Positions 31,106-40,658 of a stretch of 64,000 nucleotides of DNA are shown piece by piece (within the stretch, counting starts at the first letter, position 1; each line of letters opens with the position of its first letter). The position numbers were made by a program, and so were the translations under genes. The DNA comes from Spirochaetia bacterium (GTDB lineage: Bacteria; Spirochaetota; Spirochaetia; CADAEX01): the NCBI GenBank assembly GCA_017554185.1, contig JAFZIU010000106.1:4338-68337 (forward strand), written 5' to 3'. The notes below the pieces were generated by a model that did no database searches, was not told where the DNA came from, and saw only the letters and a program-made list of their open reading frames with translations.

Positions 31106-31675
31106 TCAGTCAAGAAGCCATGCAGCCATCTCGTCGGCAGCTTTAAGGTCGTCTGGTTTTTCCATTATGCTGCCTGGTACATTTGCATTTCCTGCCACAT
31201 GTGCTTTTTCTGTCCTGAAACCAGCGATGGCAAAGTTCTTAAGGTTGGTGTCAACCATCTGGGTATAGATATCGACAGGACCGAATCCTGCGAAGAAATA
31301 TCCTGCAATCTTCTTGTCTTTTCTGCCGGCCATGGAGAAATCGCTCTGGGTAAAGTCCATAAAGGAGTAGGTTCTGTCCAGGAAAGCCTTGAGCTGAGCC
31401 GGGAACTGATCCCAGTGAACTGGTGCAAGAATCAGCAGGGCATCGCATGAGTCAATCTGAGGGATAAGGGCGGTAAAATCATCCCGCTGGATACAGTTCG
31501 GGGTATGCTGCTTCTTGCAGGCATCGCAGGCCAGACATGGGTTTACAGCTTTTTCTCCAATGCGGAATGCAGTGATTTCTGCTTTACCAGCCAGCTTTTC
31601 TGCAAAGTATTGCTCAAGGGCATAGGAATTGCCATTTTTTCTTTTGCTTGCATTGATGATAAGTATTTTTTTCAT
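31106..31675 (-). CDS. flavodoxin-like fold NAD(P)H-dependent FMN reductase / quinone reductase family protein
   Basis: Start at ATG 31675 (MKKILIINASKRKNGNSY) with AGGAGG 5 nt upstream; flavodoxin_2 / NADPH-dependent FMN reductase-type N-terminus. Confidence 0.65.
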   Translation of the reverse strand: MKKILIINASKRKNGNSYALEQYFAEKLAGKAEITAFRIGEKAVNPCLACDACKKQHTPNCIQRDDFTALIPQIDSCDALLILAPVHWDQFPAQLKAFLDRTYSFMDFTQSDFSMAGRKDKKIAGYFFAGFGPVDIYTQMVDTNLKNFAIAGFRTEKAHVAGNANVPGSIMEKPDDLKAADEMAAWLLD

Positions 31676-31775
31676 TATTTCCTCCTGTTTTCTCTTCATT
31701 ATATCATACTTGTCTTATAGTATTCATTCTATTATAATATTGACTATAACTTTTAGTTATTGCAAGGAGACTGAT

Positions 31776-32666
31776 ATGACTACTTCCCAACTGGAATGTT
31801 TTATAAAAGTGGCTGAGACGTTGAATTTCAAGAATGCAGCTACCCAGCTTTTTATCTCTCAGCCTGCTGTCAGCAAGCAGATTCTTTCCTTGGAGAATGA
31901 GCTGGATACCAAGCTTTTTATCCGGTCCTCCCACTATGTGCTTCTTACCCAGGAAGGAAAGGCTTTTTTGGACAATGCCAGGAATATCCTTAAGCTTACT
32001 TATCAATCTAAGCAGATTATAGCCAGCCATAAGACTTCTCAATCTGACACGCTCAGGATTGGGTATTCAGAGCCCCATGAGATGATTCGCCTTACTGATT
32101 CTCTCTGCACCATGAGGAAAAAGTATCCTCAGTTCTATCCCGTTTTTACTATGGACAGCCTGGATATGAATCTGACTAAGCTGGAGCATGGAGATTTGGA
32201 TGTTTGCTTTACATTCCTTAATTTTGTCAAACCCTATGAGAATCTGATGTTTGTCCCAGTGACAAGCCAGAAGATGATATGTCTTCTGTCCGCAAATCAT
32301 CCGAAAGCTAAGAAAAGGGCCATATCCTTTGAGGAACTTAAGATGGAAAGTCAGATAATAACTGTTCCCTTTCACCTTAGAAGCCGTTACCACTCAGGTC
32401 ATGATGAGCCATCTTTCCCTACAGCCGAAGGGCAGAGGATTATAATCTGCAGCAATGCTACCGAGGCTTATGCATTGGTGAGCGCCGGGTATGGGTATTG
32501 TGTGCTTCCTGAGTTTGCCGTAGTTCCAGATACGGCTCTAAGCTTCCTGCAATGGGAATATGCTACCGATTTTGTGTATGGAATGGTATATTCCAAAGAA
32601 AAGAGAAGCAGTATGCTTAAGGATTTTGTCCAGGTTGTAAAGCATAAGCCTGAAAATCGCTCTTAG
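31776..32666 (+). CDS. LysR-family transcriptional regulator
   Basis: Start at ATG 31776 (AAGGAGA RBS); N-terminal HTH MTTSQLECFIKVAETLNFKNAATQLFISQPAVSKQI; divergent from the flavodoxin-like gene. Confidence 0.85.
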   Translation: MTTSQLECFIKVAETLNFKNAATQLFISQPAVSKQILSLENELDTKLFIRSSHYVLLTQEGKAFLDNARNILKLTYQSKQIIASHKTSQSDTLRIGYSEPHEMIRLTDSLCTMRKKYPQFYPVFTMDSLDMNLTKLEHGDLDVCFTFLNFVKPYENLMFVPVTSQKMICLLSANHPKAKKRAISFEELKMESQIITVPFHLRSRYHSGHDEPSFPTAEGQRIIICSNATEAYALVSAGYGYCVLPEFAVVPDTALSFLQWEYATDFVYGMVYSKEKRSSMLKDFVQVVKHKPENRS

Positions 32667-33238
32667 AGCAGCATAAGGCCGGTCACCAGTGGGATAAGCA
32701 GGTTGTCGTAGTCTTTTATGGGCAGAAGTTCTGTCAGGGTTGCAGCAAAGGCTACAGCTGCGGTTTTGGTGATGCTGCAGCCGGTGGCGTGGAAGGCCAG
32801 CATGAACACGGTGGCAAAACAGGCGGCTGACCCGGCCCAGGTCTTGCCTGTGCAGGGAATCTGGGTTCTGCCGAAGCTTTTGCCCACCAGGCAGGCGGCT
32901 GTGTCGCCGAAGGCCAGGGCATAGATAGCTATAGCCGCTGCAGGCATAGGGTAGAGTGCCAGTGCTCCCATGGCTCCCAGGGCCAGTGTCACCGGCGCTT
33001 TCGCAAAGTGGATCATATCCTGGGAACGGAACGCCTTTGCCTTTATTTCGGAGAACACTGGCACGTAATGGCCGGTCAGCCGCTGGAATTCAGACCAGGA
33101 GTAGATAACAATGCCGGCGCTGAGTAAAAAATAGGCCAGCTGGTAGCTGTAGCCGGCTATGAATGGGACAAATACTATAAGTGAATGTATAATCTTTCTG
33201 CAAGCTTCCTGCTGCACAACACTGATAATTCTCTGCAT
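32663..33238 (-). CDS. polytopic membrane protein, polyprenol/dolichol kinase-CTP transferase-like (COG0170-like)
   Basis: 191 aa, 5-6 TM, conserved stretch AFGDTAACLVGKSFGR reminiscent of CTP-dependent polyprenol kinase / CdsA-like families. Confidence 0.35.
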   Translation of the reverse strand: MQRIISVVQQEACRKIIHSLIVFVPFIAGYSYQLAYFLLSAGIVIYSWSEFQRLTGHYVPVFSEIKAKAFRSQDMIHFAKAPVTLALGAMGALALYPMPAAAIAIYALAFGDTAACLVGKSFGRTQIPCTGKTWAGSAACFATVFMLAFHATGCSITKTAAVAFAATLTELLPIKDYDNLLIPLVTGLMLL

Positions 33239-33337
33239 ACCTTCTTAATCGGCAGTTTTTCAAAAAAGTCAAATGAATAAGTAAATATCAATTGTGTTTT
33301 TAGCTATGTTATTATAAAATTTATATAGGAGGGGGTT

Positions 33338-33892
33338 ATGGGCAAGTATTATGAGATGAACATCGTGGGCTGCATCCGCAGGCTTCCCATCGTAAGAATA
33401 GAAGACAATCTGGATATCGCAAGCTTTGTCCTCCTGGGAGACGCAGAGCTGGTTGTAAAGGCTGCCCAGGTGCTGGACAGCAAACTGCCGGAGGCCGATT
33501 ATCTAATCACAGCCGAGGCCAAGGGTATTCCGCTGGTTCAGGAACTTGCCCGGCTCCGCAATATGAAACGCTATTTTGTTGCGCGCAAAAGCGTAAAGCC
33601 GTATATGACAGATCCCTTTGTCACCGAAGTCTATTCAATAACCACCAAGAAAAAGCAGATCCTGTGCCTGGACAAGGAGGAGAGCGACCTTATCAATGGC
33701 AAGAGGATCCTTATTGTGGATGATGTTATCAGCACAGGCGAGTCCCTTAAGGCTATGGAGACCCTGGTGGAGAAGGCCGGAGGCAATATTGTGGGCAAGG
33801 CCTGCATCCTGGCCGAGGGCGATGCAAAGAACCGCAAGGATATCATTTATCTCGAGGCACTTCCTGTATTCCCGGTTACTAACGAAAGATAG
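33338..33892 (+). CDS. type I phosphoribosyltransferase, adenine-PRTase-like
   Basis: Apt-like layout: hood region, KRILIVDDVISTGESL PRPP-binding loop (variant of VLIVDDLLATGGT); first gene of ECF operon, AGGAGGGGG RBS. Confidence 0.6.
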   Translation: MGKYYEMNIVGCIRRLPIVRIEDNLDIASFVLLGDAELVVKAAQVLDSKLPEADYLITAEAKGIPLVQELARLRNMKRYFVARKSVKPYMTDPFVTEVYSITTKKKQILCLDKEESDLINGKRILIVDDVISTGESLKAMETLVEKAGGNIVGKACILAEGDAKNRKDIIYLEALPVFPVTNER

Positions 33893-33901
33893 GCATAAGA
33901 A

Positions 33902-35566
33902 ATGGACTACAGGGTAGAGGGCATAACCTATAAATACAGCAAGGACGGCAGAACTGTCCTGGACAATGTGAGCTTTTCCATTGAACAGGGAAAGGTTACA
34001 GCCATAGTAGGTCCTTCGGGCTGCGGCAAGACTACGCTGCTTGAGATCTTGAGCGGAGTCATCCCCACACTTATTTCCAGCGGGCAGCTGTCCGGCACAT
34101 TCCAGAAGCCGGAAGACAGCCTGGTAAGTGTTGTAAGCCAGACACCGGAGAACCAGCTTTTCGGCTACGGGGTGGAGGATGCCATTGCATTCGGCCTTGA
34201 GAACATGGGTATTCCGCAGGCAGAGATTGCACAGCGGATGGACTATGTTCTTGATCTTTTAAGCCTGCAGTATCTGCGGGCCCGGAGCGTGGCAAACCTT
34301 TCGGGCGGCCAGCGGCAGGCTGTGTGTATAGCATCGGTTCTTGCAATGCAGCCCGACATCCTTATCATGGACGAGCCTGTAAGCTCGCTGGACCCTAACG
34401 GCAAGAGCCTTGTACAGATGGTGCTCAAGCAGATAAGCCTGGACGGAAACACTGTAATACTGGTGGACAACAACCTGGTATGGTCTGCCGGCATAGTGGA
34501 CCATGTAATAGGAATGATGGACGGCAAGGTGGTGTTCGACGGCAGCAAGGAGGATTTCTTCCAGGACTTCGAGCTGCAGCATAAGCTGGGGGTGATCATA
34601 CCTCAGGAGGTTGAGCTCTACCGCGGTCTTCTCCCATATTTCCCCAAGCTCAAGATGTTCTATACAGTAGAGGACGGTCTTATGCAGCTTGCAGAGATGG
34701 TGAACACCAAGCTGTTTGCAAAAAGCTACACAGAAGAGGAGGAGACAGGGGAGAGCATAATATCGGTGCATAACCTTGAGAAGGTGTTCAGCGACAACTT
34801 CCATGCCCTTAAGGATGTGAATGCCAATATCCCGAAGGGGAAGATAACAGCTGTCCTGGGGCAGAACGGATCGGGCAAGACCACTTTTGTAAAGCATCTG
34901 AACGGTCTTTATAAGCCTACTACCGGTGATGTGCGCTACAAGGGCGAATCGCTTCTGGAGAAGTCTGTGGCCCAGATATCACGGAACATAATACTGGTGT
35001 TCCAGCACCCGGAGCATATGCTGTTCGAGGAGACAGTGGAGGCCGAGCTCACATTCTGCGCACGTATGCAGAATATCCCGTTCACCGAGGAAAAGATAAC
35101 CGAGGTGCTTACCAAGTACAATCTGCTTGAAGAAAGGAATACCTTCCCCCTCAACCTTTCCATGGGCAAGAAGCATACACTTACTATTCTTTCTGTCCTT
35201 TTCTCCAGTGCCGATGTAATCATACTTGATGAGCCTACACTGGGCATGGACGGCTTCCTTATGAAAGAACTGGAGGCCCTGATAAAAGGACTTAAGGAGC
35301 AGGGGAAGACTGTAATTATAATAAGCCACGAGATTCCTATGGTGTTCCGCACTGTGGACGATGCCATCATCCTGAACAACGGAAATAAGATATTCCAGGG
35401 GACCAAGCAGCAGCTGGCGATCCGCGATGATATTTTCGACAAGATACATATTTCGATGCCTCCTGCAGTGGTTATGTCCAAGGCACTGGGCTTTGACAAG
35501 ATCTGCTACAATGTTGATGAGTTTGTAGAACAGGCCAAGGCTTTGACAAGAAAGGAGGCAGAGTGA
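33902..35566 (+). CDS. ECF transporter fused tandem ATPase (EcfA-EcfA')
   Basis: Two ABC modules with Walker A GPSGCGKTT and GQNGSGKTT, two LSGGQ-like signatures (LSGGQRQAV; LSMGKKHTL). Confidence 0.85.
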   Translation: MDYRVEGITYKYSKDGRTVLDNVSFSIEQGKVTAIVGPSGCGKTTLLEILSGVIPTLISSGQLSGTFQKPEDSLVSVVSQTPENQLFGYGVEDAIAFGLENMGIPQAEIAQRMDYVLDLLSLQYLRARSVANLSGGQRQAVCIASVLAMQPDILIMDEPVSSLDPNGKSLVQMVLKQISLDGNTVILVDNNLVWSAGIVDHVIGMMDGKVVFDGSKEDFFQDFELQHKLGVIIPQEVELYRGLLPYFPKLKMFYTVEDGLMQLAEMVNTKLFAKSYTEEEETGESIISVHNLEKVFSDNFHALKDVNANIPKGKITAVLGQNGSGKTTFVKHLNGLYKPTTGDVRYKGESLLEKSVAQISRNIILVFQHPEHMLFEETVEAELTFCARMQNIPFTEEKITEVLTKYNLLEERNTFPLNLSMGKKHTLTILSVLFSSADVIILDEPTLGMDGFLMKELEALIKGLKEQGKTVIIISHEIPMVFRTVDDAIILNNGNKIFQGTKQQLAIRDDIFDKIHISMPPAVVMSKALGFDKICYNVDEFVEQAKALTRKEAE

Positions 35567-36387
35567 TGGATTATCTGAAGTACGTCGACTCAAGCTCCTT
35601 CCTCCATAAGCTGGATCCAAGGACCAAGTTTGCTTTCTTTGTGGCCATGGCTGTCCTCACCAGCGTCATAAAATCCTTTGTGGCACTGACATTCCTGCTC
35701 TTATTCTTCATAGGAATGTGGAAAAGCTGTCATATAGGGACCCAGATCCTGACACTGCTTGCAAAGCTTAAGATACTGCTTCTGTTCATCTTCCTGCTGT
35801 GGTCTATTCTGGGTATGTTCTCTGTCCCCGAGGTGGATGGAGGCCCTATATTCTTCCAGACCACATTCAGCTGGATGGGGAAGCCGCATATCTTCTGCTT
35901 CGACTGGTATGACCTGTATAAGGGTGCAGTCTATCCTCTGCGTATATTCCTTATGATTTCCTCTTTCTACACCGTGCTCCTGACCACCAACTTCAGCGAG
36001 ATGATACTTGGACTGCGCAAGTGGCATATCCCTTATTCTGTGGCATTTGCCATCGGTCTTATCTTCCAGATCATCCCGATTACCATTAACGAGCTCCAGG
36101 CCATCATGGATGCCCAGAGTTCCCGGGGACTTGAGATAGACAAATGCGGCTGGGCCACAAAGGTCAAGAATTATGTCACATTCTCGTTCCCGCTGCTGTT
36201 CAGGGTTATTGGAAAAGGACAGGCTATTTCCCTGGCCATGCACTACTACAAGCTGGACTTCTCGGTCAAGCGGACTGCATACAAGGTTATAAAGGCCAGC
36301 AGGCTTGATATTTACTTCGTTGCTGCAAATGTTGTGGCAATCGCTATAACTATAGTGCTCAGAATTATGTACTACATACCGGTCTGA
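35563..36387 (+). CDS. ECF transporter transmembrane component EcfT (CbiQ family)
   Basis: 274 aa, 5-6 TM, CbiQ/EcfT family layout with conserved coupling-helix region (FAIGLIFQIIPITINE...RG); 4-nt overlap with EcfA. Confidence 0.75.
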   Translation: MMDYLKYVDSSSFLHKLDPRTKFAFFVAMAVLTSVIKSFVALTFLLLFFIGMWKSCHIGTQILTLLAKLKILLLFIFLLWSILGMFSVPEVDGGPIFFQTTFSWMGKPHIFCFDWYDLYKGAVYPLRIFLMISSFYTVLLTTNFSEMILGLRKWHIPYSVAFAIGLIFQIIPITINELQAIMDAQSSRGLEIDKCGWATKVKNYVTFSFPLLFRVIGKGQAISLAMHYYKLDFSVKRTAYKVIKASRLDIYFVAANVVAIAITIVLRIMYYIPV

Positions 36388-36402
36388 GCAGGAGGAGGTT
36401 TT

Positions 36403-37182
36403 ATGATTAAACGATGGGAAGAACTTACCAGAGATGAAATAGGGGCCCTGGATAAGGACAAGAGCATAGTGGCTCTGCCGCTCTCTGCCACCGAGCAGCA
36501 TGGTGCGCATCTTCCTGTGGGAACCGATGCCATCATTCTCTCCACATTGATCGACAAGATTATAGAAGGGGAGAAGTTCGAGAAGGGCAACCTTATCTTT
36601 GCCCCTCAGTTTTTGATTGGAAAGAGCAACGAGCACATGTGCTTCCCTGGCACCCTTACATTCAAGGCAAAGACCTACTACTCCATGATCTACGATATTG
36701 CAGGAAGCATAGCTCACCACGGCTTCAAGAAGCTGGTGCTGTTCAACAGCCACGGCGGAAACACCGATATGGCAAACCTTATAAGCAGGGATCTGCGGAT
36801 TGATTTCGGGCTGCAGGTGTTTGTGTTTGACTGGTGGTTCACCGACTTCTGGGCCGACGGTCTTAAGGGGCTCAAGGAGTCCGGCATGTACGGTGTCTTC
36901 CATGCCTGCGAGCTGGAGACAAGCCTTATGCTGGAGGCAAGGCCCGACCTGGTCTACATGGACAAGGCTGTGGACGAGGATCCTGCCGACTGCTTCAAGG
37001 GCGACAAGTATGTTACAGTCTTCGGACCTGTGAATGCGGGCTGGAAGACCAACGATGTGACAAAGAGCGGTGTAATCGGGGCACCTACATTTGCCACAGC
37101 AGAAAAGGGGAAAAAGCTTTTTGATTACGCGTGCAAGAAGCTTATTAATATATTCAGCGAAATTGCAGATATAAATTATTGA
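36403..37182 (+). CDS. creatininase-family amidohydrolase (creatinine amidohydrolase / ArfB formamidopyrimidine-nucleotide deformylase family)
   Basis: N-terminus IVALPLSATEQHGAHLPVGTDAII and later HGGN...ELETS conserved metal-binding residues of creatininase fold. Confidence 0.7.
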   Translation: MIKRWEELTRDEIGALDKDKSIVALPLSATEQHGAHLPVGTDAIILSTLIDKIIEGEKFEKGNLIFAPQFLIGKSNEHMCFPGTLTFKAKTYYSMIYDIAGSIAHHGFKKLVLFNSHGGNTDMANLISRDLRIDFGLQVFVFDWWFTDFWADGLKGLKESGMYGVFHACELETSLMLEARPDLVYMDKAVDEDPADCFKGDKYVTVFGPVNAGWKTNDVTKSGVIGAPTFATAEKGKKLFDYACKKLINIFSEIADINY

Positions 37183-37196
37183 AAAGAGAGGGAAAC

Positions 37197-37784
37197 ATGG
37201 CTAAAAAATTCTCATTCGTCAATATCATCTTCTTTGTAGTATTTGGTGTATTGACTGGAGTTCTCTGGGCATACCTGTGCCCAATTCCACTTATTCCTGG
37301 AGCAGTTCACTTCAGGACATTCGCTTTTATCATTCCGGTTATCGGCTATCTCTTCGGACCTGTTACAGGATTCTTTGCAGGCTATATCGGAACACTTGTA
37401 TGGTCTCTGCTTTCAGGAATGTTCATTCCGCTGCATTCTCCGATTGCAGATGGTATCACAGTAGGTCTTTCTGCAGCACTTCCTGCATTCTTCCATCTTA
37501 AGAATGGAAAGATTGACCTTGTAGAGCTTATTGATCAGAACAAGAAAGCATTTATTGGAAAGTGTCTTTTCTTAAGCGTATTCTTCGGTATCCTCATGAT
37601 CCTTTCCACCAGTGCTTCTCTTGCTTATTTCCTTATGGGCGAGCAGAGCTATATGGAGAATTACATTTTCTGTATCGTCTGGATTGGAATCGCCGATGTA
37701 GTGCCTATCGCTCTTACTCCATTTGTTGTTGTTCTCCTTGCAAAACGGATGAAGAACATCAGAAACATCATTCCATACGTATAA
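37197..37784 (+). CDS. ECF transporter substrate-specific (S) component, unknown substrate
   Basis: 195 aa, 6 TM; start at ATG 37197 after GAGAGGG; paralogous to S component at 60653-61198 (shared FGPVTxFxAGxxGTxxxxxLSG block at identical spacing). Confidence 0.6.
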   Translation: MAKKFSFVNIIFFVVFGVLTGVLWAYLCPIPLIPGAVHFRTFAFIIPVIGYLFGPVTGFFAGYIGTLVWSLLSGMFIPLHSPIADGITVGLSAALPAFFHLKNGKIDLVELIDQNKKAFIGKCLFLSVFFGILMILSTSASLAYFLMGEQSYMENYIFCIVWIGIADVVPIALTPFVVVLLAKRMKNIRNIIPYV

Positions 37785-37813
37785 ATGAAAATATAAAAGA
37801 CACGCGTAAACAA

Positions 37814-37842
37814 AGCCGGGGCACCCACCCCGGTTTTTTTTA
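37814..37842 (+). terminator. rho-independent terminator after ECF operon
   Basis: CCGGGG-caccca-CCCCGG then T8. Confidence 0.8.
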
Positions 37843-37944
37843 TCGAGCTGTACCCTTATCTGTGCTCTAATATTGACTATCTTAAGTGTTTGTGGTACAA
37901 AAGCTATACATGCGTTGACGAAAATCCAGTAGGACGCCGATAAC

Positions 37945-38160
37945 CTTCCAAGAGAGCTGCCGGGCGGTGCAAGGCAGTGGAGGCCGGTGCTCCGAATTAC
38001 CTTTCCGAGCAGCGCCTTGAAACACCCCCAAGGTGGAGTAGTGGTCGCCGGGTCCGCCCGTTACAGCGCAAGGGTATGTCTGTACCTGATAAGGCTCTTC
38101 CTGCGAAGGTAGGGCAAACAGAGGTGGTACCGCGGGAACTCTCGCCCTCTGTGTTTTCTT
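37945..38160 (+). promoter_or_regulatory. T-box riboswitch leader with intrinsic terminator
   Basis: AGAGAG 37951-56, GGTGCAA 37966-72, GAGTAG 38036-41, F-box CCGTTA 38058-63, exact T-box core GGTGGTACCGCGG 38123-35, terminator ACAGAGG...(GCGGG-aact-CTCGC)...CCTCTGT 38118-38152 then GTTTTCTTT. Confidence 0.75.
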
Positions 38161-38198: not shown

Positions 38199-39836
38199 AT
38201 GGTTATTACAGATCTTCTTGAACGCAATTCTAGATTGTATGGTGGAGAGTGTGCACTGGTGGAGATTAACCCATCAGAGAGCCGGGATAAGGCAGTTACA
38301 TGGCGTGAGGCCAGTCTTATAGAGGGCTCCCAGGATGCACCATACCGCCGTGAGATGTCCTGGCGCTCCTTTGACCGCAGGGCAAACCGCATGGCAAACC
38401 TGCTCTTGAGCCGAGGCCTCAAGCGGGGCACCAAGGTGGGCATCCTTATGATGAACTGCCTGGAGTACCTGCCTATCTACTTTGGAATACTCAAGGCCGG
38501 CTGCATTGTAGTTCCTATGAACTTCCGCTATTCCAGCGAGGAGATTGCCTACTGCCTTGACCTGGCCGATGTAGAGACTCTTATCTTCGGACCTGAGTTC
38601 ATAGAGCGTATGGACGCGATCCAGGACCGGATCCCAAAGGTTAAGTATCAGCTCTTTGTAGGAAAGAACGGGCCTTCATATACCGAAAACTTCTTCGACC
38701 TTATGCATTTTTTCTCACCCGATGCACCTCCTGTGCTCTTTACCGAGGATGACTTTGCAGCTATCTATTTCTCATCCGGCACCACCGGATTCCCCAAGGC
38801 AATCCTCCACAAGCACCGCTCACTTATAAGCTCATGCATGGTGGAGCAGAATCACCACGGACAGACACGGGATGATGTATTCCTGTGCATTCCTCCGCTG
38901 TACCACACCGGTGCCAAGATGCACTGGTTCGGAAGCCTCCTTGCAGGAAGCAGGGCTGTGCTCCTCAAGGGCATCAAGCCGGAATGGATTTTACGCACTA
39001 TTACAGAAGAGAAATGCACCATCGTATGGCTCCTTGTGCCATGGGCTCAGGATATACTGGATGCAATCGATTCAGGCCGCATCAAGCTGGAGCACTATAT
39101 GCTGGACCAGTGGCGGCTTATGCACATCGGAGCACAGCCGGTGCCTCAGAGCCTTATCCAGCGGTGGCTCAAGGTGTTCCCGAACCATCAGTACGACACA
39201 AACTACGGCCTTTCCGAGTCCATCGGGCCAGGCTGTGTTCACCTTGGAGTGGAGAATGTCCACAAGGTGGGTGCCATCGGTAAGGCCGGCTATATGTGGC
39301 AGACCAAGATTGTGGATGACAAGCATAACCCGGTCAAGCAGGGCGAGGTAGGCGAGCTGGCTGTAAAGGGTCCTGGTGTCATGGAATGCTACTATAAGAA
39401 CCCCAAAGCCACCGCCGAGTCACTTGCTGACGGCTGGCTCTTCACCGGCGACATGGCCAAGGAGGATGAGGATGGCTTCATCTATCTGGTTGACCGGAAG
39501 AAGGATGTCATCATCACCGGTGGCGAGAACCTCTATCCTGTGGAGATTGAGAACTTCCTCCGCAAGTTTGACAAGATCAAGGATGTGGCTGTGATCGGAT
39601 TCCCTGATCCAAGGCTTGGAGAGATTGCAGGTGCCATCATCGAGATCAAGGAAGGTATGACCTGCACCGAGGACGAGATAAACGAGTTTGCCCAGGGTAT
39701 GCCACGCTATAAGCGGCCTAAGAAGATAATCTTTGCAAAGGTTCCCCGGAATCCTACCGGAAAGATAGAGAAGCCGCTCTTACGCAAGATGTACAGCACC
39801 ACCAACCTGGTTGCAGAGGAGATCGGCGAAAAATAA
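38199..39836 (+). CDS. AMP-forming acyl/aryl-CoA ligase (ANL superfamily)
   Basis: Start ATG 38199 after AGGAGA; motifs SSGTTGFPKA (A3), YGLSES (A5), TGD (A7), PRNPTGKIEK (A10); ORF-track N-terminal extension is the T-box leader. Confidence 0.8.
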   Translation: MVITDLLERNSRLYGGECALVEINPSESRDKAVTWREASLIEGSQDAPYRREMSWRSFDRRANRMANLLLSRGLKRGTKVGILMMNCLEYLPIYFGILKAGCIVVPMNFRYSSEEIAYCLDLADVETLIFGPEFIERMDAIQDRIPKVKYQLFVGKNGPSYTENFFDLMHFFSPDAPPVLFTEDDFAAIYFSSGTTGFPKAILHKHRSLISSCMVEQNHHGQTRDDVFLCIPPLYHTGAKMHWFGSLLAGSRAVLLKGIKPEWILRTITEEKCTIVWLLVPWAQDILDAIDSGRIKLEHYMLDQWRLMHIGAQPVPQSLIQRWLKVFPNHQYDTNYGLSESIGPGCVHLGVENVHKVGAIGKAGYMWQTKIVDDKHNPVKQGEVGELAVKGPGVMECYYKNPKATAESLADGWLFTGDMAKEDEDGFIYLVDRKKDVIITGGENLYPVEIENFLRKFDKIKDVAVIGFPDPRLGEIAGAIIEIKEGMTCTEDEINEFAQGMPRYKRPKKIIFAKVPRNPTGKIEKPLLRKMYSTTNLVAEEIGEK

Positions 39837-39839
39837 TCT

Positions 39840-40658
39840 ATGGGTCTTATCTCCTCCCTCTACGAGAAAAAGAAGATGTCCCTGGTCATGGGGATACTCA
39901 ATGTCACACCAGACTCCTTCTATGCCGCAAGCAGGAAGGAGTCGGTCTCTTCTGCCCTTGATGCAGCCCTGGCTATGGAACAGGACGGTGCAGATATCAT
40001 CGATATCGGGGCAGAGAGCACAAGACCTGGCTTCACACCAGTGAGCGCCGAAGAGGAGAGAGAGCGTATAATCCCTGTAATAAAAGAGATCCGGAAGCAC
40101 ACAGCAGTCCCCATCTCGGTGGATACCCGTAAGGGTGCTGTGGCACAGGCGGCTCTGGATGCAGGGGCCCACATTGTTAACGATATTTCTGCCGGCACCT
40201 ATGATTTTTCAATAATTCAAATTGTAAAAAATTATAAATGTGATATTATATTAATGCACAGTCAGGAAAAGGCTCTTTATTCTGATGTGGTGAAAGAGGT
40301 CAGGGACTATCTTTTGTCCCGTGCCGAAGCCTTTAAGAACGCTGGTGTTCCGGCAGACAAGATTACGCTGGATCCGGGCTTAGGCTTTGGGAAGGATACG
40401 GAGCACAACCTTGATTTGATGCGCCAGATGGGGCAGATTGCAGCGCTGGGTTACCCGGTTCTCATAGGGTGTTCCAGAAAGCGCTTTGTAGGTGCAGTGA
40501 CTGGTGCCGATGTGGAAGGCAGGCTGGCCGGGACACTGGCGGTTAACGCCTTTGCCGCTGCCCATGGTGCTGCTGTGCTCAGGGTTCATGATGTGAGGGA
40601 GACATCTGATATGGTCAAGATGCTCTTCTCCCTTGGAGATATTGCAGTCAGGAGGTGA
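39840..40658 (+). CDS. folP: dihydropteroate synthase
   Basis: Pterin-binding domain MGILNVTPDSFY, ...DIGAESTRPG, LIGCSRKRF. Confidence 0.85.
   Translation: MGLISSLYEKKKMSLVMGILNVTPDSFYAASRKESVSSALDAALAMEQDGADIIDIGAESTRPGFTPVSAEEERERIIPVIKEIRKHTAVPISVDTRKGAVAQAALDAGAHIVNDISAGTYDFSIIQIVKNYKCDIILMHSQEKALYSDVVKEVRDYLLSRAEAFKNAGVPADKITLDPGLGFGKDTEHNLDLMRQMGQIAALGYPVLIGCSRKRFVGAVTGADVEGRLAGTLAVNAFAAAHGAAVLRVHDVRETSDMVKMLFSLGDIAVRR

Follow-up and report, generated by a model that had tools for sequence, protein, structure and literature searches.

A 64,000-nucleotide stretch of DNA from a Spirochaetia bacterium (GenBank assembly GCA_017554185.1, contig JAFZIU010000106.1, positions 4,338 to 68,337 of the forward strand; termed the window below, with positions counted from its first letter) contains an operon of five co-directional open reading frames (33338-37784, + strand) that combines an energy-coupling factor (ECF) transporter with two enzymes. 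The genes encode, in this order, a phosphoribosyltransferase (PRT), a fused EcfA-EcfA' ATPase (EcfAA'), the transmembrane component EcfT, a creatininase-family hydrolase and an S component for substrate capture. Our analysis reveals that this operon is a conserved system, which is undescribed as far as could be established: a literature search found no description of an ECF-creatininase-PRT system, in agreement with an earlier interpretation made from the letters alone (the sequence-only reading), which knew of no such combination of an ECF importer with this enzyme pair. As to its role, we consider it fairly probable that the operon serves the scavenging of purines or purine derivatives by means of a salvage PRT.

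Gene order, conservation and the ECF module

To survey related operons, one genome per species was scanned with a profile of the S component, which yielded 77 loci that were searched by tblastn with the window proteins; 63 of them were evaluable. The order PRT-EcfAA'-EcfT-hydrolase-S is kept in 49 of these 63 loci, which represent at least six families from two phyla. Carriers include Lachnospiraceae (Eisenbergiella, Acetatifactor, Roseburia), Oscillospiraceae, Christensenellaceae and Sporanaerobium, as well as eleven Sporolactobacillus species, Peptococcaceae, Thermotaleaceae and five metagenome-assembled genomes (MAGs) of rumen Spirochaetia. Of these, the Spirochaetia MAGs stand nearest to the window, with 96-99% identity in the flanking hppA and 85-99% in the operon proteins. 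As the flanks are conserved only within genera and not between taxa, the five genes travel as a unit. Neighbourhood conservation had been proposed as a check by the sequence-only reading, which would have yielded to an S component of known vitamin family and to enzymes that are not co-conserved; we found instead that PRT, hydrolase and S component stay together across many families and that the S family is not a known one. That the two enzymes lie beside the transporter by mere coincidence is extremely improbable, given a gene order shared by distant taxa with unconserved flanks, the short spacers, the single leader and the single terminator.

Inspection of the operon itself supports the tight packing that had been described, with short spacers between co-directional genes, and corrects several details. 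Five genes are present rather than six, the ATPase being a single fused open reading frame of 554 amino acids. The PRT gene is preceded by an intergenic leader of 99 nt (33239-33337), in which a strong Shine-Dalgarno sequence, AGGAGGGGG (33327-33335, + strand), can be read 2 nt before the ATG at 33338. An intrinsic terminator (37812-37845, + strand), consisting of a stem of 10 pairs, six of them G-C (37812-37837), and a T-run, closes the operon. Hence, the ribosome-binding site (RBS) and the strong terminator assigned previously are borne out, while the promoter is not: the sole consensus sigma-70-like match (33165-33193) falls within the divergent upstream gene. A promoter for the operon is plausible. 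Overlapping starts had been reported for three junctions, of which one is real. That is, the EcfAA' and EcfT genes overlap in the sequence GTGATG, in which the TGA stop occupies 35564-35566 and translation starts at GTG 35563 or ATG 35566, served by the RBS AAGGAGG. EcfT and hydrolase genes are separated by 15 nt holding a separate RBS, AGGAGGAGG, and the hydrolase and S-component genes overlap only if the latter starts at TTG 37179, whereas ATG 37197 leaves a gap of 14 nt. We favour ATG 37197, as suggested by the N-termini of homologues (MAKKFSF or MKKKFSF) and by the RBS.

The transporter genes pass curated cut-offs, which confirms the fused ATPase and EcfT of the sequence-only reading. EcfAA' (33902-35566, + strand) carries two ABC_tran domains (PF00005 twice), and its halves reach 353.3 bits with TIGR04521 (cut-off 330) and 340.7 bits with TIGR04520 (cut-off 315). 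EcfT (35563/35566-36387, + strand; 274/273 aa, with ATG 35566 as the more likely start) matches PF02361 (CbiQ) over residues 11-227 with 89.6 bits (cut-off 25). The last gene of the operon encodes the S component (37197-37784, + strand; 195 aa when counted from ATG 37197, with TTG 37179 as alternative start). An AlphaFold model based on 18 homologues has a pLDDT of 82.4 and a pTM of 0.84, and a Foldseek comparison of this model with the PDB places ECF S components at all ranks from 1 to 12 (probability 0.98-1.00, TM score 0.46-0.57, identity 13-18%). These twelve matches comprise RibU, BioY, ThiT, PanT and two unnamed S components, while FolT and CbiM rank lower. The protein stays below profiles of known families (PF07155, 20.4 versus 26.7 bits; PRK13661, 16.5 versus 99), and searching 1.84 billion representative proteins with the S-component profile returned 42 matches, 36 of them at E<=1e-10 and many of them fragments. 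The low number of matches and the low identity to solved S components indicate that the family is small and compact and has no detectable sequence kinship to characterised S families. Judged by its modelled fold, the protein is the S component of a new, uncharacterised family, in line with the unassigned specificity noted earlier. NCBI records label the family 'aminotriazole resistance protein', which no Pfam or NCBIfam model supports and which looks like a propagated misannotation. Taken together, EcfAA', EcfT and the adjacent S fold would form an ECF transporter with a dedicated, group I-like module, for which import is predicted.

Purine riboswitches in the leaders of related operons

The purine link is provided by the leaders of related operons. 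In all nine of the more distant loci tested with Rfam, a purine riboswitch (RF00167) lies directly 5' of the PRT gene, scoring 48-67 bits (gathering threshold 37). An nhmmer profile built from these matches detects the same aptamer in 23 of the 77 loci (L042-L067 and L076) at E values from 6e-17 to 4e-25, placed approximately 130-250 nt 5' of the PRT start; no further copy was detected in the loci, and none in the window. Upstream of the window operon, no RNA element was found with Rfam (E<=1) or with nhmmer and the riboswitch profile; the rumen Spirochaetia lineage acquired the operon without the riboswitch.

Alignment of the aptamers to B. subtilis xpt shows that the equivalents of U22, U47, U51 and C74 are kept and that extra nucleotides are present in J2/3 and J3/1. 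The guanine-II class is distinguished by one extra nucleotide in J2/3 and three to four in J3/1, with the U22, U51 and C74 equivalents retained, and the aptamers of the related loci have these features. Their span from U7 to A66 comprises 60 nt, as in the 71-nt guanine-II construct used for crystallization (PMC12445698), and the core matches at G33, U34, U36, C37, U38, A39, C40, C59, C64, U65 and A66 but differs at positions 41 and 62. Aptamers of the guanine-II class have an affinity of ~10 nM for guanine and do not accept xanthine, and they are found most often 5' of PRT genes with base specificity not established, the first downstream gene alone having been tabulated (PMC9295807). The published examples from Paenibacillus are ON switches (PMC9295807; PMC12445698).

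All leaders have a terminator hairpin and U-run, positioned 28-75 nt ahead of the start codon. A conserved (UAU)GGUGUUCUU overlaps the 3' strand of P1, and in some loci also C64, and in duplex analyses pairs over 10-11 bp with the 5' arm of the terminator at -11 to -22 kcal/mol. A conserved GGUGUUCU, located after P1, finds its partner in an equally conserved AGAGAACACC of the terminator 5' arm. In partition function calculations, sequestering the aptamer raised the terminator probability from 0.04 to 0.68 in L043, from 0.43 to 0.98 in L045, from 0.19 to 0.74 in L063 and from 0.19 to 0.97 in L064. Several loci gave no clear difference, and in no case did sequestration clearly lower the terminator probability; automatic terminator detection missed one locus in the partition function run and four in the duplex run. 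Minimum free energy folds of whole leaders disagreed between loci on ON versus OFF. From an antiterminator competing with P1, the classical OFF arrangement seen in xpt-pbuX, and from the trend in the partition functions, that is from equilibrium folding, we infer that guanine would repress these operons, i.e. that the riboswitches act as OFF switches. They accordingly share with the published guanine-II riboswitches associated with 'PRT' genes (Hamal Dhakal et al. 2022, PMC9295807; PMC12445698) the aptamer length, the ligand-contact nucleotides, the J2/3 and J3/1 insertions and the PRT gene that comes next. In contrast to these, the expression platforms of the 23 loci look like OFF switches and the A41 and G62 equivalents differ, and ECF and creatininase genes are not discussed there.

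The two enzymes and their genomic contexts

The PRT (33338-33892, + strand; 184 aa) is a type I enzyme of the PRK07322 subfamily, which resembles the Thermus adenine PRT (APRT), and is predicted to salvage purine bases. It scores 44.3 bits with PF00156 (cut-off 26.3) and 236.6 bits with NF005592 (cut-off 143), the subfamily model that NCBIfam names adenine PRT. It stays below the equivalog cut-offs of TIGR01090 apt (40.9 versus 185.85 bits), TIGR01744 XPRT (34.5 versus 164.45), TIGR01203 HGPRT (25.3 versus 150) and TIGR00336 pyrE (37 versus 106.8). Full-length alignments were obtained with PDB entries 5ZGO and 6FSP (E~1e-36), deposited as adenine and adenine/guanine PRT, and also with 7F06 and 1VCH (overall E 1e-24 to 1e-36). 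Thus, its earlier description as adenine-PRTase-like is upheld by the subfamily model and by these alignments, but not at the level of an Apt equivalog. The loop that binds phosphoribosyl pyrophosphate (PRPP), ILIVDDVISTGES, had been called atypical; it is normal for the subfamily, aligning with VDDVVSTGST of 5ZGO and resembling VDEVISSGGT of 7F06 and VSDVVASGET of 1VCH. The Thermus-type adenine/guanine PRTs (5ZGO, 6FSP, 1VCH) and an adenine phosphopsicosyltransferase (7F06) thus share subfamily and PRPP loop pattern with the window protein; to our knowledge, genes for Thermus-type PRTs have no link to ECF transporters. With respect to the base used, the solved relatives would point to adenine and the riboswitch of related operons to guanine. 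A second PRT-like gene (~31% identity) neighbours the ECF operon in several loci devoid of the creatininase gene (L006/L007, 4086-4815; L026/L029/L033; for example L026, 6978-7586, - strand).

The hydrolase (36403-37182, + strand; 259 aa) matches PF02633 with 224 bits (cut-off 31.3), which establishes it as the metal-dependent amidohydrolase of the creatininase family that had been recognized before. In an alignment with P. putida creatininase, the residues E, H, D, H, H and E are kept, with EQH, GTD, NSH and HACELE aligning with E34/H36, D45, H120 and H178/E183, which we take to be the binuclear-metal ligands and the catalytic histidine (Yoshimoto et al. 2004). Because these residues are intact, the enzyme is probably active. 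Several assignments within the family were rejected. With the model for creatininase proper (TIGR04448) the protein reaches 111.6 bits versus a cut-off of 235 and has HGGN in place of HYEN; with MftE it reaches 104.7 versus 172 and with IolN 73.8 versus 245, and no mycofactocin or inositol genes, respectively, are nearby. The ArfB model (NF033501) gives 21.6 bits versus a cut-off of 180, with residues 22-132 alone being aligned. PDB sequences matched by the hydrolase comprise creatininases (60-62 bits) and two structural-genomics entries only, so that there is no close solved relative, and all homologues are named just 'creatininase family protein' in their source records. In sum, the protein shares with P. 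putida creatinine amidohydrolase (PDB 1J2T), ArfB and BrbF the PF02633 fold and the conserved metal ligands and catalytic histidine, but falls below every equivalog cut-off and stands in a context of purine or nucleoside metabolism rather than of creatine or riboflavin.

These scores bear on the substrate put forward by the sequence-only reading, namely a formamidopyrimidine (FAPy) base that the ECF transporter imports, the PRT ribosylates and the hydrolase deformylates by ArfB/BrbF chemistry for the riboflavin/pterin pool. PF02633 does include ArfB, a bacterial creatininase-family AFRPP formamidase, BrbF, exists (PMC9478397), and the FapyG amine that matches N9 could in principle attack PRPP. 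Nevertheless, we judge this route very unlikely. The ArfB score is far below those of the creatininase and MftE models, no rib or fol genes and no flavin mononucleotide (FMN) or tetrahydrofolate riboswitches occur in the related loci scanned, the regulatory RNA that was found is purine-specific, and hydrolase and S component occur together in clusters lacking the PRT; no link of the operon to riboflavin or pterin metabolism was found. The proximity of folP, 2 kb downstream, had been taken as a clue. However, folP (39840-40658, + strand) is separated from the operon by the terminator, by a T-box leader (37906-38152, + strand; RF00230, 95.6 bits versus a gathering threshold of 93) and by an acyl-CoA-ligase-like AMP-binding gene (38200-39836, + strand), which ends 3 nt before folP and whose true start is ATG 38200, since the listed start at 37977 runs through the T-box leader. 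Linkage with folP is restricted to the nearest MAGs, and even these do not have it as a contiguous arrangement: in L002, folP is 3 kb further off with opposite-strand genes in between, and in no locus outside Spirochaetia is it adjacent. The specifier of the T-box is probably UAC (Tyr); a T-box before an acyl-CoA-ligase-like gene is unusual in what looks like a Spirochaetia genome.

Some loci deviate from the common gene order. Of the 63 that were evaluable, six lack the hydrolase but keep the PRT (L006, L007, L026, L033, L034, L046), five have hydrolase and S component without the PRT (L037, L040, L071-L073), and three have neither enzyme. Occurrence of the hydrolase with the S component in PRT-less clusters means that the hydrolase has no need for the product of the PRT. 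In the Clostridia loci L037, L040 and L068, genes for an Ade-like protein, a cyclase (PF04199), a DUF1989 protein, the hydrolase (absent from L068, which holds the catabolic set without it) and an M20 protein precede EcfAA'-T-S. In L071-L073 (Cohnella, Paenibacillus), a nucleoside-type ABC importer and an isochorismatase are followed by EcfAA'-T-hydrolase-S, by UbiX, UbiD and bacterial microcompartment (BMC) shell genes, and by the Ade-like, cyclase and DUF1989 genes. Hydrolases from salvage and catabolic contexts have all motifs in common (ATEQHGxHLPVGTD, IGKSNEH, NSHGGNTD, FVFDWWFTxFW, YGVFHACELETSLML and GWKTxDVTxSGVIG) and are presumably the same enzyme.

Outside the S-component loci, a hydrolase of the same subfamily (53-58% identical to that of the window) and a PRT of the same subfamily (50-60%; NF005592, 225 bits) are encoded in other assemblies beside a Bmp-type ABC importer. 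Here, the order is DeoR regulator, BtpA, creatininase, Bmp-type ABC importer, nucleoside hydrolase, M42 peptidase and FGGY pentulose kinase, often with an additional isochorismatase and a guanine-deaminase-like amidohydrolase; L086 also holds the full UbiD/BMC/Ade-like/cyclase/DUF1989 island. The module of DeoR, BtpA (SgcQ), creatininase and Bmp genes recurs in L078, L080, L082, L083 and L086-L088 with a PRK07322-type PRT just upstream, and one version of it is present in more than 900 assembly blocks. Its BtpA, M42 and DeoR genes echo the uncharacterised sgc operon of E. coli. Judged by these gene orders, PRT and hydrolase are a conserved pair independent of importer type, and the metabolic neighbourhood is throughout that of purine bases and nucleosides.

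The BMC shell genes lie between UbiX/UbiD and the Ade-like/cyclase/DUF1989 genes, at ~10.5-12.6 kb in L071-L073 and at 14.0-16.7 kb in L086. They comprise three PF00936 genes, joined by EutN in L086, and two unannotated proteins; the stretch is a candidate microcompartment for hydrolytic purine or imidazole catabolism.

The probable role of the operon in purine metabolism

Creatininase interconverts a guanidino acid and its lactam. Classical xanthine amidohydrolase cleaves the N1-C6 bond of the purine ring (PMC3519856). Since the N1-C6 bond of guanine or xanthine can be viewed as the six-membered analogue of the creatininase lactam, opening or closing of a 6-oxopurine ring is our leading guess for what the hydrolase does; the data are just as compatible with an enzyme that trims, or acts in a deaminase-like manner on, a purine derivative brought in by the transporter.

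In the reading we favour, the dedicated importer, made up of EcfA-A', EcfT and a private S component, would capture a purine base, or a compound closely derived from one, when little of it is present outside the cell, and two cytoplasmic enzymes would share the imported pool. The PRT would convert the base with PRPP to the nucleoside monophosphate, i.e. perform salvage, and the hydrolase would act on the free base or the imported compound rather than on the product of the PRT. It may trim or re-close a purine-derived compound into a substrate of the PRT; alternatively, its task may be lactam-ring opening of a 6-oxopurine. Through the riboswitch, guanine would shut off the whole operon in many Firmicutes, which is the logic of purine scavenging. 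Import and salvage of a heterocyclic base, as proposed by the sequence-only reading, are thereby retained and narrowed to purines by RF00167 in the 23 loci, but its order of events, with hydrolysis of the nucleotide as the last step, does not agree with hydrolase clusters lacking the PRT and with operons having the PRT only.

The hydrolase could instead serve catabolism, with importer and hydrolase as the entry to anaerobic purine degradation by the 'xanthinase' route, in which xanthine or guanine would be opened to 4-ureido- or 4-guanidino-imidazole-5-carboxylate. Applied to the window, the hydrolase would drain excess or imported purine for nitrogen and the PRT would take the share needed for nucleotides. 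This is suggested by the islands of Ade-like, guanine-deaminase-like, cyclase, DUF1989, isochorismatase/M20, UbiX/UbiD and BMC genes around the S-component and hydrolase genes (L037, L040, L068, L071-L073, L086), by the motifs common to hydrolases of both contexts, and by the chemistry, as opening of the acyl-guanidine lactam by creatininase would be the five-membered analogue of N1-C6 opening. The pathway reportedly employs four hydrolases of different families and a decarboxylase dependent on prenylated FMN, a composition that the islands resemble. More than one chemically reasonable assignment of the island hydrolases to steps of the pathway fits equally well, and we assert none of them. 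For Clostridia and Bacilli, the groups in which such islands were found here, a gene cluster of the 'xanthinase pathway' is on record (PMC12507026, citing Tong et al. 2023). However, neither the window operon, which has none of the xanthinase-type hydrolase set and no UbiD/UbiX, nor the 48 similar operons encode the downstream catabolic enzymes, so that ring opening would lead nowhere unless these are encoded elsewhere. Moreover, repression by purine would be unusual for a catabolic pathway, and L068 has the catabolic set without the hydrolase. On balance, we regard a catabolic role in the window as rather unlikely.

The importer might also take up a modified base set free when RNA or cofactors are turned over, such as an N-acylated or carbamoylated adenine of the kind found in t6A/ct6A, from which the hydrolase, by cleaving off or opening the modifying group, would restore the plain base for salvage by the APRT-like PRT or, in PRT-less loci, for an adenine-deaminase-like enzyme. 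The adenine annotation of the closest solved PRT relatives and of the NCBIfam subfamily fits this idea, as do the mutual exclusion of PRT and Ade-like genes among the S-component loci and the presence of the enzyme pair beside nucleoside ABC importers, nucleoside hydrolases and further amidohydrolases (M42, isochorismatase, M20); an ECF importer would in general suit a scarce compound. Yet the Ade-like proteins, with 486 and 453 bits, lie at or below the adenine deaminase cut-off of 472.5 and may therefore not be adenine deaminases, no specific gene points to a candidate modified base, and the operons with the PRT only imply that the imported compound is usable directly. We therefore give modified-base trimming only a slim chance.

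Purine scavenging itself has several observations to contend with. The window operon lacks the RF00167 aptamer according to both Rfam and nhmmer, so that its link to purines rests on orthologous operons, and the OFF behaviour inferred for the riboswitches is opposite to the published ON behaviour of guanine-II. What a guanine riboswitch senses is whether purines are sufficient, which is no proof that guanine is the cargo; in B. subtilis, G-boxes also control biosynthesis genes. ECF importers normally serve vitamins and trace compounds rather than bulk purines. In L078 and others, the creatininase gene stands among sugar-type genes (BtpA, M42 peptidase, FGGY pentulose kinase) with no obvious base-degrading enzymes, which a purely base-directed role of the hydrolase does not explain. 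Finally, the roles given to the S component, the PRT and the hydrolase are predictions from sequence, modelled fold and gene context.

A more specific variant of scavenging builds on the reversibility of the reaction, as creatininase can also run in the ring-closing direction, from creatine to creatinine. The S component may take up ring-opened purines (4-ureido- or 4-guanidino-imidazole-5-carboxylate) leaked by purine-fermenting neighbours, which the hydrolase would re-close to xanthine or guanine and the PRT would convert to xanthosine or guanosine monophosphate. We deem this unlikely, on a par with base trimming. If true, it would constitute a previously unknown salvage route that recycles intermediates of purine degradation in anaerobic communities, and the same hydrolase would be a ring-opening 'xanthinase' wherever the catabolic island is present.

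Neighbouring genes and relation to known systems

The other neighbours of the operon in the window are housekeeping genes (dnaK, dnaJ, xseA, hppA, folP, cdaA, truA, priA). Divergently from the operon, a gene (32663-33238, - strand) encodes a predicted membrane protein of 191 aa, which has no match in Pfam or NCBIfam and which Spirochaetia MAGs alone keep at this position, with 79-91% identity. Between it and hppA, the window has an FMN-reductase-like gene (PF03358, - strand) and a LysR regulator gene (+ strand; together 31106-32666). As hppA directly adjoins the membrane protein gene in L001, L002, L004 and L005, this pair is a small lineage-specific insertion.

Riboswitch-controlled base salvage is known from xpt-pbuX of B. 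subtilis, in which a guanine riboswitch represses the genes of a xanthine PRT and an NCS2 purine permease. Examples of this type are also found in C. difficile (PMC11477304). Such operons and the system described here have in common a purine PRT and an importer on one transcript and, in the related loci, the RF00167 aptamer with a terminator/antiterminator platform. They differ in that the importer here is an ATP-driven ECF transporter instead of a secondary permease, the PRT is a member of the PRK07322 subfamily and not an Xpt (34.5 versus 164 bits), a creatininase-family hydrolase is added and the aptamer core is guanine-II-like. A second parallel is offered by the QrtT/QueT ECF transporters, as in the queK-qrtT-queL genes of C. 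difficile with their preQ1 riboswitch, where an S component for a (deaza)purine-type base is likewise co-transcribed with converting enzymes including a hydrolase and the riboswitch senses the end product (PMC11477304); in the present case, only related operons have a riboswitch. The S family described here has no detectable sequence relation to QrtT/QueT and is accompanied by a dedicated EcfAA'T module. Where the queuosine-precursor genes provide a nucleoside hydrolase and a radical-SAM lyase, this operon encodes a PRT and a creatininase-family hydrolase, and the riboswitch is of the purine/guanine class. The xanthinase cluster of Clostridia and Bacilli, as far as it is described in PMC12507026 (citing Tong et al. 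2023), resembles those related loci in which the S component and the creatininase-family hydrolase are accompanied by UbiD/UbiX and several other hydrolases. The window operon differs by having the PRT and none of the downstream enzymes.

Taken together, what is new here is the S family and the combination of ECF transporter, PRT and hydrolase, while riboswitch-controlled base salvage and ECF transporters with co-encoded processing enzymes are known already; no categorically new mechanism is involved. The known cargoes of ECF importers are vitamins, metals and queuosine precursors, and an ECF transporter that has its own S family and is regulated by purines would extend this class to nucleobase scavenging in anaerobes of gut, rumen and fermenters. 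In addition, the guanine-II-type 'PRT' genes of unspecified base turn out, in 23 loci, to be the first genes of a transporter-hydrolase operon. Anaerobic purine metabolism is currently an active field with regard to gut urate and purine clearance. As it is kept with the PRT across three importer types and also occurs in purine-catabolic islands with microcompartment genes, the hydrolase represents a well-defined candidate for a missing reaction of anaerobic purine metabolism.

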